A program made the translations under genes and the position numbers. Shown here piece after piece: positions 32,709-47,084 of a stretch of DNA of 51,324 nucleotides (positions within the stretch are counted from its first letter, which is position 1; the number at the start of each line of letters is the position of its first letter). Source of the DNA: Escherichia phage WaterSpirit; sequence record OR896833.1; one strand, written 5' to 3'. Below the pieces are notes generated by a model. It searched no databases and was not told the origin of the DNA. It saw only the letters and a list, made by a program, of their open reading frames with translations.

Positions 32709-33827
32709 ATGAGTCAGAGCAAGATAACGGACGAGCAATTCACGCATGAGCGATTAAAGGGTAAGAGCTATCGTCAGATTGCTGAGGAATACGGCCTTAA
32801 CGTTCGTAGCGTCGAGCGCCGAGCGGCACGACTGGCAAAACAGGGTAAAATATCAACCATCGGAACTCCTGGTTTTGGTGTTCACGGTGAATCGGTCATG
32901 ACCGACAAAGAAGGTAACGTGATCGTCAAATGGACAAAGACCAGTAAGGACAAAGAGCAACTGGAAGCGTTGATGCGTGCAGCTATGGACGCTTTTACCG
33001 AAGAATTGCCGCGAGTAGATCCGACACCGGAAGAAGCGAGCGAATACAGCGAAAGCCTTGCCCTTTACCCCGTTTTTGATATGCACCTGGGAGCTATGGC
33101 GCACAAACACGAATGCGGCGAGAATTGGGATACTTCCACGGCTGAGAAAGTAATGAATGACTTTTTCGATTATGCTGTGGCCTGTGCACCGTTCAGCGAG
33201 AAAGCAGTGCTACTGATTGGGGGTGACATGCTTCATAGTGACGGCCTGGAAGCAGTAACGCCTGCAAGCGGTCACGTCCTGGATCAAGATAGCCGATACG
33301 CAAAATTGGTTTACGTGGCAATCCGCGCCGTCCGTCGTGCCATTGAGTTGATGCTCAAAAAACACAAAGAAGTAGAGATCCAGATAATTGAGGGAAACCA
33401 TGACCAAAGCGGCATGATCTGGTTACGTGCAGCTATGGCGGCGGCATATGAAAAAGAGCCGCGCGTTTACGTTGATGTATCGCCGCGAGTGGTTCACCAT
33501 ACGCAGTACGGAAAAACCTTCCTTGCATATCATCACGGTCACACCGTCCGCAAGCCGGAAACATTGCTAATGATGTGCGCGGCAGACTGGCGGGAGGACT
33601 TCGGCAACTCAAAAACGATGTATGCGCACGTAGGGCATTTTCATCATCAGACTGTAACAGAAACATCGCTCGGCATTGTTGAAGTACATAGCACGATGGC
33701 AGCTAAAGACGCATACGCCGCGCGAGGCGGTTGGCGTTCCCGTCGCCGTGCTGCGGTTATCATTTACGACAAAGAACACGGCGAAATCGGAAGATTTATG
33801 TTTTATCCTGAGATGGCAGAGAAATAA
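32709..33827 (+). CDS. HTH domain fused to calcineurin-like metallophosphoesterase
   Basis: 372 aa; N-terminal HTH-like SYRQIAEEYGLNVRSVERR; phosphoesterase motifs DxH (FDMH), GD (GGDMLH), GNHD, and His-rich HHGH/HVGHFHH. Confidence 0.5.
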   Translation: MSQSKITDEQFTHERLKGKSYRQIAEEYGLNVRSVERRAARLAKQGKISTIGTPGFGVHGESVMTDKEGNVIVKWTKTSKDKEQLEALMRAAMDAFTEELPRVDPTPEEASEYSESLALYPVFDMHLGAMAHKHECGENWDTSTAEKVMNDFFDYAVACAPFSEKAVLLIGGDMLHSDGLEAVTPASGHVLDQDSRYAKLVYVAIRAVRRAIELMLKKHKEVEIQIIEGNHDQSGMIWLRAAMAAAYEKEPRVYVDVSPRVVHHTQYGKTFLAYHHGHTVRKPETLLMMCAADWREDFGNSKTMYAHVGHFHHQTVTETSLGIVEVHSTMAAKDAYAARGGWRSRRRAAVIIYDKEHGEIGRFMFYPEMAEK

Positions 33828-42456: not shown

Positions 42457-42484
42457 TTGACACGCATGAAATAGCACTTATAAT
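42457..42484 (+). promoter_or_regulatory. Near-consensus sigma70 early promoter (TTGACA-16-TATAAT)
   Basis: Direct read; spacer contains AAATAGCAC; drives early-right gene block. Confidence 0.65.
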
Positions 42485-42515
42485 GGCCTGCAACTGACCA
42501 ACAGGAGGAATGACA

Positions 42516-42977
42516 ATGAGTCAGAAAACATCGAAAGACTATTGCGACTGGTTGCGAGAGCTTGGGCGACGCCTTGCAAGCGGCGAGATTGTAGAGCATA
42601 AAATGTCAGTTCTCGACCTTGCCGGAATGTTAAACGGCGACGACTACTACAAGGTGACAAAGAATCAGGCATACAGCCGCACAATAATCAACCGTGTGCC
42701 GGAAGTGAAAGCGGTTGGAAAGGTGCGAATCAGAACGGAAGAAACGGAAGACGATAAGTTTTACGTTTTCAGCCTGAATCGCGACGTTAAGCGCAAGGTG
42801 ATCACGAGCGAAGACTTGCCAGCCGTCCAGGCAAAGGCGGTAGAAAAGTTCGCCGCTCGCATTCTTGCATCAATGCCAAACGTTACCGATATGCAAGGCG
42901 ATAAACTGGCTGGAGCTTGTGAAGGAATAAGCCGCTACCAGGAAATGATCCGCAATCTTGTTAACGAGGAGAAATGA
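42516..42977 (+). CDS. Hypothetical early protein (153 aa)
   Basis: RBS AGGAGG 7 nt upstream; first gene after the strong promoter. Confidence 0.4.
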   Translation: MSQKTSKDYCDWLRELGRRLASGEIVEHKMSVLDLAGMLNGDDYYKVTKNQAYSRTIINRVPEVKAVGKVRIRTEETEDDKFYVFSLNRDVKRKVITSEDLPAVQAKAVEKFAARILASMPNVTDMQGDKLAGACEGISRYQEMIRNLVNEEK

Positions 42978-43667: not shown

Positions 43668-43735
43668 TAATCCAGGCCGTAAAATCCGGCCTATAACCAG
43701 AAATAATTTTGTTAAACCAATCAGGAGAAAGCACC

Positions 43736-44626
43736 ATGTTAAAACTTGCTGACATTAAATTCCCGATCACCTTCCAATCAAAGGGAGTCGGACACTTCAT
43801 GTTTACCGATGAAAATACATGCACTAAGTTTAACGAATACGGAAAGCCTGATGTTTCATCAATGGAGATTGATCACTTCATTGATGCGCATAACAAGCAC
43901 TACAACTCGCTTAAAGACTACGGCTACGCAATGCCAGGATATACCAGCCTCCACTACAAGCCATATAAAGGCCAGGTGTTACCAGTGCGCTCGCCGGAAC
44001 GCGCAGAGATTCCGATGGTCGAGATGAAAACATGCGACTATAAAAAGCTGTGGTGCTTAAACGTGGACAATATCAAGTATCCGATCACGTTCCGAGCCAC
44101 TGGTGATAGCACGATAACATATACATCAAGAGATAACGGCGTTTATAGCGATGGTCAGAAATCAGAGCTAAAAGTTGATTTCTTTGTTAATGGTCACAAT
44201 AGATTCAACCCACACAATGAAAAAGATAAGGTGTACTACGTGGAAGACATTACAAAACACTTATTTGGAGAAACACCATTCGGCGGCGGGAAGACGTCAA
44301 TTCAGAAAATAATTGGCGAGGAGATCCACAAAGCGGCTAACGAAATAAAAGCGCCTGGAGGCTGGCGTATTGATAAGAGCGCCTTTGCCAATCAAGAAAT
44401 CTTAACGCAGGGAGCAATTGAAGACATGCCAGTTGCAGCCACTCTAAAAGGAGTCCAGCTTGATGATGGTTCATGGTATGAACTAACTGCGAAACCAAAG
44501 ACGATTGAGATTCATGATGATGTTGTTATCCTTCTGCTTCACTATGGCAGCGCAAAAAACCGGACTGTTGCGGGTGAGATCAGCATCAAGCGCGGAACGA
44601 TGGTTAAGTGGAAGGTGAAGATTTGA
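43736..44626 (+). CDS. Hypothetical protein with internal tandem domain duplication (296 aa)
   Basis: RBS CAGGAG 8 nt upstream of ATG 43736; repeated segment D(I/N)K(F/Y)PITF...F(I/V)(D/N)(A/G)HN at aa ~5-60 and ~120-180. Confidence 0.45.
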   Translation: MLKLADIKFPITFQSKGVGHFMFTDENTCTKFNEYGKPDVSSMEIDHFIDAHNKHYNSLKDYGYAMPGYTSLHYKPYKGQVLPVRSPERAEIPMVEMKTCDYKKLWCLNVDNIKYPITFRATGDSTITYTSRDNGVYSDGQKSELKVDFFVNGHNRFNPHNEKDKVYYVEDITKHLFGETPFGGGKTSIQKIIGEEIHKAANEIKAPGGWRIDKSAFANQEILTQGAIEDMPVAATLKGVQLDDGSWYELTAKPKTIEIHDDVVILLLHYGSAKNRTVAGEISIKRGTMVKWKVKI

Positions 44627-44702: not shown

Positions 44703-44855
44703 ATGGCTACCTGGATTTTACTGATTCTTATGATTGATGGCGGCGTTGACCATATTGAAATGAATAGCCAGCAATCTTGCATTGAGGCACGAGAGCAGAT
44801 CAAGAACAACAACAGGTTTTATGCTTACACTCACACGCTATGTATTAAGAAATAG
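44703..44855 (+). CDS. Small hydrophobic protein (50 aa), below ORF-track cutoff
   Basis: Strong RBS GAGGTGAGAG; N-terminal TMD (WILLILMIDGG); stop TAG inside the conserved element. Confidence 0.3.
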   Translation: MATWILLILMIDGGVDHIEMNSQQSCIEAREQIKNNNRFYAYTHTLCIKK

Positions 44856-44894
44856 CACGAATTGTTAAAACTCAAATGTGGGGCCAGGTATAAT
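44853..44894 (+). promoter_or_regulatory. 18-bp element, GAATTG variant + 18-nt spacer + TATAAT
   Basis: TAGCACGAATTGTTAAAA 44853-44870; TATAAT 44889-44894 within GGCC/GGCC hairpin loop. Confidence 0.45.
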
Positions 44895-45335: not shown

Positions 45336-45878
45336 ATGAAAAAATACACTTTCGAACTATGGGGCAAGAAATACGAATTAATGACCAGCAAGCCGATTGT
45401 TATCGTTGATCTTGATGGCACGCTATCGGACGGATCGCATCGTTTGCACTTGTTGCCAACGGAAAACTTGCACCTTACTGAATCGTGGAGCGAATTTAAC
45501 AGGGCAGCCGCCGGAGATTCACCTATTAAGAGCACGATCGCGGTTATTAACGGTTTATGGGTATCAGGATTCGCCGTCATTATCCTGACCGGACGCAGCG
45601 ACGAAGTTCGCTATGAAACATGCAAATGGTTGAATGAGAACGGAGTGAAGTTTGACGAAATCATCATGCGCCGCCAGGAGGATAACCGAAAGGATACGGT
45701 TATTAAAGAAGAAGCCTTGCGCGCTATTGGCCTGGACAATATCGTTTGCGCCTTTGACGATTCCGCGAACGTGGTGAAGCACTTCCGTAACCTGGGGATC
45801 ACAACCTATCAGGTAACGGAATATGACAAGCCACACGCTCACCTGCAATCTCACGGCGTGGAGGAGTTGCAGAAATGA
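45336..45878 (+). CDS. HAD-superfamily phosphatase (polynucleotide 3'-phosphatase-like)
   Basis: 180 aa; HAD motif I DLDGTLSDG near N-terminus; small size typical of phage Pnk phosphatase domains. Confidence 0.5.
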   Translation: MKKYTFELWGKKYELMTSKPIVIVDLDGTLSDGSHRLHLLPTENLHLTESWSEFNRAAAGDSPIKSTIAVINGLWVSGFAVIILTGRSDEVRYETCKWLNENGVKFDEIIMRRQEDNRKDTVIKEEALRAIGLDNIVCAFDDSANVVKHFRNLGITTYQVTEYDKPHAHLQSHGVEELQK

Positions 45879-46084
45879 TCCTGAATGTAGCATATGCTAA
45901 CCCTCGCGGCTGCAATATATACGGCTTTAAGGTTGGCGCGATGGTCAACGCCAGGATAAACGAAAAAGGCGTATTAGTTGTCAAGTCACCTAAAACTGGC
46001 ATGGATATGCGCATCAAGGAGAACGGCGGAAGATTGTTTATCAGGTCAATGTCTGGTCAAACGCTCGCAACGTTCACCAAATAG
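45875..46084 (+). CDS. Hypothetical protein (69 aa)
   Basis: Start overlaps upstream stop (ATGA). Confidence 0.3.
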   Translation: MILNVAYANPRGCNIYGFKVGAMVNARINEKGVLVVKSPKTGMDMRIKENGGRLFIRSMSGQTLATFTK

Positions 46085-46125
46085 CACGAATTGCAAAAAA
46101 CAGATCATCGGGCTTGCTTTATAGT
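46082..46125 (+). promoter_or_regulatory. 18-bp element, GAATTGC variant + 19-nt spacer + TATAGT
   Basis: TAGCACGAATTGCAAAAAA 46082-46100; TATAGT 46120-46125 in loop of GGGCTT/AAGCCC hairpin. Confidence 0.45.
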
Positions 46126-46187
46126 AAGCCCATCAACAACGAAAGAGGAAAGCATCATGTTGTTACAGCAGACGAGGAGACGAAGAA

Positions 46188-46457
46188 ATGACACGCAAAA
46201 TTGAAATATTCCAGGCCATAGACAGAATCGACATGAGGGATTCACTATTCGCTATTGAGTCCATTGATGGCGAAGACGTCGCCTACAACGTAGAGCTGGA
46301 TGAATACAGCTTCGACTGTGTGCGCAAAAAGTTTGCAGATAAAATTGCTATGCAAGGCCGATGCTTGCATAAAGACTCAAGCATAGAGCCTAGACGAAGC
46401 GACATGATTAATCCAAAACTTGTTGAGACTATTACTTTTGTGGAGAGCAGAAAATGA
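46188..46457 (+). CDS. Hypothetical protein (89 aa)
   Basis: ORF; stop overlaps next start. Confidence 0.3.
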   Translation: MTRKIEIFQAIDRIDMRDSLFAIESIDGEDVAYNVELDEYSFDCVRKKFADKIAMQGRCLHKDSSIEPRRSDMINPKLVETITFVESRK

Positions 46458-47044
46458 AAAGAGACATCATTATCCTGAATGGGCCACCTGGAGTGGGAAA
46501 GGACACCATTGCGGCATACCTTACCGGACACCGATACCCAGCAGTTAAGGCATCATTCAAACAGCCAATGTTCGATATTGCGTTCTCCATGCTTGGCGTG
46601 TGCCGATACGATGAATTTATGGACTTGTACAACGACCGGGAACAGAAAGAGAAGCCTCAAGTTATTTTGGGCGGCAAGTCACCGCGACAGTTCATGATCT
46701 GGATTAGCGAGGAGGTCATGAAGCCAGCATTTGGGGATCAGTATTTCGGCCGTCGCATGGTTGAAGAGATTCACGAGATGTACCGAGATTTGGCAGTTGT
46801 GATCAGCGATGGGGGATTCACCGAAGAAATAAAGCCACTGATTAAAGCAGGTCACAAAGTGCACATTTGCCGACTGCATCGCGAGGGGTACACGTTCGAT
46901 GGCGACTCGCGAAACTATATCGACATGGGCGACTATCATCACCGCCTCAAGCATTACGATTTCACGTTGCACGATGGCGAGCCAGAAAAGACGGTAGAGG
47001 AAATCATCGAAACCGTGCAGTGGTATTTCACAAAAATCAAATAG
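46454..47044 (+). CDS. P-loop kinase (nucleotide or polynucleotide kinase-like)
   Basis: 196 aa; Walker A GPPGVGKDT near N-terminus. Confidence 0.5.
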   Translation: MKRDIIILNGPPGVGKDTIAAYLTGHRYPAVKASFKQPMFDIAFSMLGVCRYDEFMDLYNDREQKEKPQVILGGKSPRQFMIWISEEVMKPAFGDQYFGRRMVEEIHEMYRDLAVVISDGGFTEEIKPLIKAGHKVHICRLHREGYTFDGDSRNYIDMGDYHHRLKHYDFTLHDGEPEKTVEEIIETVQWYFTKIK

Positions 47045-47084
47045 CACGAATTGCTAAACGCGGGGCGCAATGCTCCGCTATAAT
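47042..47084 (+). promoter_or_regulatory. 18-bp element, GAATTGC variant + 19-nt spacer + TATAAT
   Basis: TAGCACGAATTGCTAAAC 47042-47059; TATAAT 47079-47084 inside CGGGG/CCCCG hairpin. Confidence 0.45.

Follow-up and report, generated by a model that had tools for sequence, protein, structure and literature searches.

Does the early region of Escherichia phage WaterSpirit encode a split nucleic acid repair enzyme, or a pair of enzymes that process nucleotides? The window analyzed here is the whole 51,324-nucleotide stretch of sequence record OR896833.1, in which genes for a HAD phosphatase and a P-loop kinase are separated by two small open reading frames (ORFs). A preliminary description of this locus likened the two enzymes to the phosphatase and kinase halves of polynucleotide kinase-phosphatase, used by T4 to repair cleaved tRNA, and named a deoxynucleoside monophosphate (dNMP) kinase as the alternative for the second gene. 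We find that the two genes are evolutionarily coupled: their order is kept, they are often translationally coupled, and they are occasionally fused. With a probability of roughly 55%, we favor a coupled nucleotide-salvage or pool-processing pair, which would be expressed early and act on breakdown products of host DNA.

The four ORFs of the locus are exactly those first described:

45336..45878, + strand: HAD phosphatase, putatively stand-alone Pnkp-type, 180 amino acids, with DLDGTL at residues 25-30
45875..46084, + strand: ORF69, 69 amino acids, start overlapping the HAD stop (ATGA), in the variable cassette region between the enzyme genes
46188..46457, + strand: ORF89, 89 amino acids, stop overlapping the kinase start (ATGA), PHROG 25318, a family of unknown function
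46454..47044, + strand: P-loop nucleotide kinase, putatively T4-gp1-type, 196 amino acids, with GPPGVGKDT

In DNA sequence, the region is 80-95% identical to T1-like coliphages (Drexlerviridae, Tempevirinae/Warwickvirus-type), close relatives in which both enzyme genes are already annotated. Indexed searches at E<=1e-3 returned 507 homologs of the HAD protein and 279 of the kinase, and an exhaustive search with the kinase profile returned 4026 cluster representatives. Because homologs are numerous and annotated in close relatives, the enzyme ORFs are real genes rather than chance ORFs. None of the four ORFs has an NCBIfam match above threshold.

Identity of the two enzymes

The HAD protein matches Pfam PF25109 (HAD_PNKP) with 76.6 bits (cut-off 27.6) over profile positions 3-140 of 143, and PHROG 415 at 1.3e-66. 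Significant matches in a sequence search of solved structures were confined to Pnkp1 (4xrp) and the T4 Pnkp phosphatase domain (5uj0, 1ltq), and its closest structures are Pnkp phosphatase domains. The T4 enzyme uses Asp165 as nucleophile and Asp167 as acid-base, while Ser211 and Lys258 contact the phosphate and Asp278 binds Mg2+ (PMC3592404). In the HAD protein, D25-L-D27-G-T29 aligns with DVDGT of T4 Pnkp, and a HMMER alignment to 1ltq places T85, K124, and D141/D142 opposite T4 Ser211, Lys258, and Asp277/Asp278. Across the HAD family alignment, the D25-L-D27-G-T29 motif, K124, D141, and D142 are invariant, while position 85 is always Ser or Thr. The predicted catalytic set is complete, comprising D25 as nucleophile, D27 as acid-base, T85, K124, and D141/D142 for Mg2+. 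Given these profile and structure matches and the conserved equivalents of the catalytic residues, the protein is a genuine member of the Pnkp-type 3'-phosphatase family. The label “polynucleotide kinase”, common among its relatives, is a misnomer, since the protein is phosphatase-only.

A subfamily-specific insert, HRLHLLPTENLHLTESWSEFNRAAAGDSPI, follows the pattern HRL..PTENL..ESW.EFN..GDSPI, which PseT-type domains lack, and marks the protein as a member of a distinct stand-alone subfamily. Compared with the C-terminal 3'-phosphatase domain of T4 Pnkp/PseT (1ltq, 5uj0) and with Capnocytophaga Pnkp1 (4xrp), the HAD protein stands alone at 180 amino acids without a Pnk kinase domain, carries ~14 extra residues as an insert between motifs I and II, and has a beta-hairpin at its N terminus and a conserved tail at its C terminus.

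The length of the HAD protein varies among relatives. In many near-identical ones (P0121, P0137, P0148, and P0134) it has 236-264 amino acids, with an in-frame extra C-terminal module of ~57 amino acids (SIKITKRARFVGSKDSLVNASF...DGDFVNAE); in the window (45336-46084) it ends at 180 amino acids and the unrelated 69-amino acid ORF comes next. Small modules have apparently been swapped or fused at the 3' junction of the HAD gene.

The kinase matches PHROG 139, “dNMP kinase” (3.7e-50). Searches of Pfam and NCBIfam, and of PDB by sequence and profile, show just a generic P-loop, so a fold comparison was needed. The closest structure is the T4 gp1 dNMP kinase; T4 Pnkp (1ltq) is not among the top 60 structural neighbors, though it was in the library searched. 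By hhalign, the kinase family profile is related to T4 gp1 with an E value of 3.7e-5 over the N-terminal half, and aligns the kinase P-loop GVGKDT with SGKDT of gp1. The curated record of T1 likewise reports a 99% HHpred match to T4 DNK for the kinase ortholog. In the structural model, strands 2 and 3 are connected by a segment with helices at 37-60, 62-65, 77-93, and 97-108. The kinase thus combines the GKDT P-loop and the helical acceptor-binding domain after strand 2 of gp1-type enzymes with a significant profile relationship to them. The conserved motifs of the family are GPPGxGKDT, SFKxPMF, DRxxKE, SPRxFMIWISE, DGGF..E, and RLHRxGxxFxGDSRNY.

The Pnk enzymes of RNA repair (T4, Clostridium thermocellum [Cth], and baculovirus) have an essential Asp-x-x-Arg after the P-loop, 35-DDYR-38 in T4 and 38-DFCR-41 in Cth (PMC3902929). 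Throughout the 32-sequence kinase alignment, no pair of columns at i and i+3 has D and R each at >=50%, and strand 2 is followed invariably by S34-F35-K36. Neither sequence profile nor fold places the protein near Pnk kinase domains. Because it lacks Asp-x-x-Arg and is linked to gp1 by both hhalign and fold, the kinase is predicted to be gp1-type rather than Pnk-type; we class it as a divergent member of the T4 gp1 dNMP-kinase fold family. It is 16% identical to T4 gp1 DNK (1dek/1del) and 45 residues shorter, has DGG where gp1 has DTR (alignment by eye), and, unlike gp1, its gene is coupled to, or fused with, that of a phosphatase. The likeness to the two Pnkp halves therefore holds for the phosphatase and fails for the kinase, for which a dNMP kinase, the alternative of the preliminary description, is borne out at the level of fold and profile.

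Coupling and genomic context

Eighty viral contigs, fetched via the kinase, were scanned with hidden Markov models (HMMs) for the two proteins. Of these kinase loci, which share ancestry, 71 of 80 have the HAD gene upstream of the kinase on the same strand. In the reverse survey, the kinase lies downstream in 38 of 77 HAD-fetched loci, many with a 3-bp gap. Order and strand are identical in every locus that holds both genes. The gap between profile matches is 0-10 bp in 14 kinase loci (mostly contigs of 44-45 kb), 487 bp in T1, and 588 bp in the window, which is mid-range, and reaches a maximum of ~2.2 kb. Kagunavirus-like, Webervirus-like, and other contigs have the two genes directly adjoining or overlapping, and in Klebsiella Weberviruses a single tblastn match spans both annotations. 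The exhaustive profile search also recovered natural fusions of an N-terminal HAD_PNKP domain with a C-terminal kinase of this family. These form three clusters (403, 413, and 461 amino acids) that have diverged to 37% identity with linker motifs in common, and two independent samples yielded contigs that encode one of the fusions identically. The split functional pair envisaged at the outset is upheld by this conserved order, by abutting genes in many lineages, and by the fusions. From the gap range, conserved order, and fusions, the pair seems to have begun as an operon of adjacent genes, HAD first and kinase second, which became a fusion in one lineage and was split by small ORFs in the lineage of the window.

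The material between the two genes varies. In T1 it is an HNH endonuclease gene (locus L090 3018-3512), and in BabyEgg and FritzSarasin it is four to six small ORFs. This suggests that the HAD-kinase junction is a hotspot for insertion of homing endonucleases and small ORFs. In the records of tonijn and Buco, endonuclease or endonuclease VII annotations lie under the HAD match.

Each gene also occurs in other company. The loci concerned are as follows:

L086 3998-5198, L091 2998-4198, L092 2998-4199, L093 2992-4225: kinase with a PHROG-420 HAD
L043 959-3579, also L044-L046, L050, and L051, and L087 2588-5675: metallophosphoesterase, kinase, and ligase
L129 5992-6797, L142 4693-7001: further stand-alone HAD loci

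In three genera of Vequintavirinae (Mydovirus, Seunavirus, and Vequintavirus), the kinase is followed by an overlapping HAD gene of ~200 amino acids and then by thymidylate synthase, with ribonucleotide reductase (RNR) genes at the kinase locus in two of the three. The kinase with an overlapping HAD gene also occurs in a Vibrio myovirus (Vibrio phage S4-7). Most records annotate both proteins of this type as hypothetical. The kinase is of the same family and has the same motifs as in the window, and its partner (rV5 gp099/gp100 type) is also a HAD phosphatase encoded by an overlapping gene. In contrast to the window pair, the order is reversed, the pair sits in a thymidylate-synthase/RNR cluster, and the HAD is of another family, with a larger insert between motifs I and II. 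This HAD (PHROG 420) has intact GIDVDxT (DxDxT) and DDR motifs and a weak resemblance to the NT5C deoxyribonucleotidase. A divergent Pnkp-type identity was ruled out for it (hhalign E 0.083). Since the PHROG 420 HAD is unrelated to the Pnkp type, the kinase family appears to have been paired with phosphatases independently at least twice.

Several other neighborhoods contain nucleotide-metabolism genes. In Krischvirus MIZ6, a stand-alone HAD gene overlaps the nrdB stop inside td-nrdA-nrdB (L089 4998-5474). Its product is 46% identical to the window HAD and scores 157.6 bits on the HAD family HMM, versus 60.3 for MIZ6 PseT; MIZ6 additionally has a full Pnkp as a separate gene, next to an RNA ligase. 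In T7-like contigs, a gene with a dGTP_diPhyd_N domain (dATP/dGTP diphosphohydrolase; ~116 bits) overlaps the HAD gene downstream; ThyX lies near the HAD gene in a marine contig; and in phi-A318 a nucleoside 2-deoxyribosyltransferase-like gene overlaps the kinase from upstream. In T7-like podovirus contigs without the HAD gene, the order is endonuclease VII, PHROG-221 metallophosphoesterase, kinase, and ATP-dependent DNA ligase, where the ligase start abuts the kinase stop.

Across several unrelated phage groups, the neighborhoods favor deoxynucleotide metabolism over tRNA repair. T4 Pnkp has an RNA ligase partner; the window phage encodes none, and its HAD orthologs adjoin nucleotide-metabolism genes. 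The preliminary description had seen no RNA ligase, and none is annotated in the well-curated relative FritzSarasin. Its suggestion that a ligase might be among the unassigned ORFs found no support: Pfam and PHROGs detect no ligase or nucleotidyltransferase domain in the larger unassigned ORFs of the window, including those of 372, 305, and 208 amino acids. A cognate Rnl1/Rnl2-type ligase, as in phage RNA repair, is thus absent from both the FritzSarasin annotation and these larger ORFs. With a kinase that is not Pnk, a nucleotide-gene context, and no encoded ligase, the T4-like tRNA-repair role first proposed is not sustained.

Possible functions of the pair

In the nucleotide-salvage reading that we favor, both genes would be expressed from the early rightward gene cluster while a T1-like phage degrades the host chromosome and then reuses its nucleotides. 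The kinase would catalyze ATP-driven conversion of 5'-dNMPs to deoxynucleoside diphosphates (dNDPs) with P-loop residues K16/D17/T18; its Arg/Lys-rich helices (K36, R62, K65, and R78) would bind the acceptor phosphate, and R140/R143/R153 would form the lid. The phosphatase would form an aspartyl-phosphate on D25, with D27 as acid-base, T85/K124 on the phosphate, and D141/D142 on Mg2+, and would strip a phosphomonoester from deoxynucleotide-level substrates. By family precedent, its substrate would be a 3'-phosphate on dNp, pdNp, or short 3'-phosphate-ended fragments. Once this phosphate is gone, breakdown products could be passed to the kinase/NDK route; alternatively, its removal would shape the dNMP pool. 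The intervening small ORFs would be later insertions into the ancestral two-gene operon.

Lytic phages in which host deoxynucleotides are remodeled or recycled bring their own genes for a dNMP kinase, a dNMP phosphatase, or both. The T7 gp1.7 nucleotide kinase and T5 Dmp offer functional analogies, although their protein families are unrelated to this pair. Dmp is described as the T5 deoxynucleotidase in PMC12265719. A mononucleotide, 3'-dTMP, is among the substrates of the T4 Pnkp phosphatase (PMC3592404). T1 and TLS break down host DNA and recycle its nucleotides; according to the TLS paper, the genes behind this breakdown are yet to be identified (PMC11447400). A 2026 paper on KanT1 notes the co-occurrence of both genes and independently proposes a role in nucleotide supply (PMC13164509).

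Several points weigh against this reading. The predicted substrates of both enzymes rest entirely on homology and context. The closest characterized relatives of the HAD are polynucleotide end-healing enzymes, and the combination of a HAD with a P-loop kinase mirrors PNKP enzymes. T1 infection has no identified source of 3'-phosphorylated deoxynucleotides, and a nucleotidase active on 5'-dNMPs would seem to work against a dNMP kinase encoded next to it. The kinase family HMM does not reach gp1 directly, and by eye alignment some motif positions differ (PDTRQDHE in gp1, DGGF..E here). The place of the kinase between a metallophosphoesterase and a DNA ligase in some podoviruses fits DNA end processing as well. 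Finally, the surveyed loci share ancestry, and 71 of 80 overstates the number of independent events.

What was already known is that both genes are annotated and that their co-occurrence has been remarked on in one paper (PMC13164509). In the literature searched, we found neither the cross-lineage evidence for coupling, including the fusions, nor any mention that the kinase has also paired independently with another HAD family, nor a “PNK” recognized as the phosphatase-only partner of a gp1-type kinase. Thousands of phage genomes carry a gene labeled “polynucleotide kinase” without a kinase domain, whose real partner is a gp1-type nucleotide kinase. Seeing both as a coupled, sometimes fused module would correct a widespread annotation and define a testable unit. 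The pair also supplies candidates for the enzymes with which T1-like phages reuse host DNA, a process long without assigned genes. Host defenses are now reported to sense dNMPs and changes in deoxynucleoside triphosphate (dNTP) pools, so phage enzymes that act on breakdown nucleotides may decide whether such defenses fire.

The alternative that survives best, although we consider it unlikely, is a third, independently assembled polynucleotide kinase-phosphatase, in which the HAD would clear 3'-phosphates, the kinase would act on 5'-OH ends of DNA (or RNA), and a host ligase such as LigA would seal. The HAD, which has every catalytic residue, is clearly of the Pnkp type, and its fusion or operon with a P-loop kinase recapitulates the architecture of T4 Pnkp. 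Mammalian PNKP (FHA-phosphatase-kinase) has the phosphatase before the kinase, and the natural fusions found here have the same order. In podoviruses lacking the HAD, the metallophosphoesterase and ATP-dependent DNA ligase that flank the kinase complete the three activities of C. thermocellum Pnkp (CthPnkp; kinase-metallophosphoesterase-ligase). The fusion gene and many Drexlerviridae pairs also adjoin a PHROG-704 “DNA repair exonuclease” (PMC13164509), which in an unrelated contig of ~60 kb is directly downstream of the HAD-kinase fusion (L003 9340-10500). However, these neighborhoods discriminate only weakly between the readings because they are general DNA-metabolism modules. The kinase, moreover, differs from those of mammalian PNKP and CthPnkp in falling outside the Pnk clade and lacking DxxR, and the components are separate genes in the window. 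A related proposal, quite unlikely in our estimate, would make the gp1-fold kinase, without the canonical Asp general base, and the HAD a new end-healing class, with which a ligase-less phage would repair nicks made by defenses or nucleases via LigA. If end healing were true, it would represent a new enzyme architecture for this task.

The PHROG-704 member of the window is the 372-amino acid protein at 32709-33827 (+), which has an N-terminal helix-turn-helix match. Metallophosphoesterase-like motifs are visible by eye (DMHLG and EGNHD), with no Pfam Metallophos match. That the podovirus metallophosphoesterase belongs to the same family is unsupported (BLASTP E 0.40; PHROGs 221 versus 704).

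There is a slim chance that the same chemistry serves counter-defense, by clearing dNMP-type alarm molecules (e.g., m6-dAMP) or by averting pool-sensing defenses. T1-like phages degrade host DNA (PMC11447400), and both genes lie within an early cluster of small accessory ORFs. E. coli PUA-Cal-HAD is reportedly triggered by m6-dAMP released by phage-driven chromosome degradation (PMC12871103), and Clover is described in PMC12265719 as sensing pool changes by the phage enzymes Dmp and NrdAB. This case is purely circumstantial, however: the passages searched in these two papers mention neither these genes nor Drexlerviridae, and the very broad conservation of the pair better fits a core metabolic role than accessory anti-defense.

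That the two are functionally independent early genes, merely syntenic in related phages, is improbable. In its favor, each is found without the other in several lineages, and the space between them can hold an HNH endonuclease gene or as much as ~2.2 kb of unrelated small ORFs. Against it, fusions have been kept down to 37% identity with conserved linker motifs, the genes abut or overlap in several groups of contigs, order and strand never vary where both are present, and the kinase family pairs independently with an unrelated HAD family in Vequintavirinae.

Nucleotide substitution of the PBS2/SPO1 type was also considered and set aside as improbable, given that these phages encode Dam/Dcm-type methylases and show no hint of non-canonical bases.

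Promoter, small ORFs, and a repeated 15-mer

A candidate early promoter heads the rightward small-gene cluster that includes both enzymes, just before a DUF7174 gene (42510-42977):

42457..42484, + strand: perfect sigma-70 consensus, TTGACA-16-TATAAT, candidate early promoter by pattern match

The total of promoter-like sites in the region is not above that in shuffled sequence. Just upstream of the cluster, a 305-amino acid ORF at 43709-44626 (+) has an apparent internal duplication (IKFPITFQSKG... / IKYPITFRATG...); it matches PHROG 7116 (unknown) in two stretches and has no Pfam match. Scans of the window found nothing in Rfam and no tRNA genes.

ORF69 has no match in Pfam, PHROG, or NCBIfam, and FritzSarasin has an ORF of equal length at its position (bas04_0072). 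BabyEgg CDS0011 has the length of ORF89 and lies directly 5' of the kinase. By eye, ORF89 (46188-46457) resembles small early-region ORFs of related contigs (MK.Q.F.A.D.IDG..SLF...), for example at L020 8700-8933 and 10890-11153. These may form a paralogous family of small early proteins.

A 15-mer, AATAGCACGAATTGC, is the core of AAATAGCACGAATTGY-AAA and has four copies in the window (0.28 expected by chance), each overlapping the TAG stop of an ORF:

1565-1579, + strand: 15-mer copy
44851-44865, + strand: 15-mer copy
46080-46094, + strand: 15-mer copy holding the TAG stop of ORF69
47040-47054, + strand: 15-mer copy overlapping the kinase stop

Downstream of every copy lie a short GC-rich hairpin and a TATAAT-like hexamer. 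After the kinase stop, the hairpin is GC-rich and terminator-like (47060-47078), and 15-mer and hairpin together (47040..47078) probably mark the 3' boundary of the unit. The 15-mer has no annotation in T1, and a literature search for it gave one unrelated paper. It occurs in 94 of the 170 fetched loci, including T1 (L090, at 1896, 2416, and 4083). It is Drexlerviridae-wide, follows gene orientation, and overlaps the kinase stop across Drexlerviridae loci; in another reading frame, it yields ORFs that end in ...NSTNC. Possible roles of the 15-mer are the punctuation of transcription or the marking of cassette boundaries.

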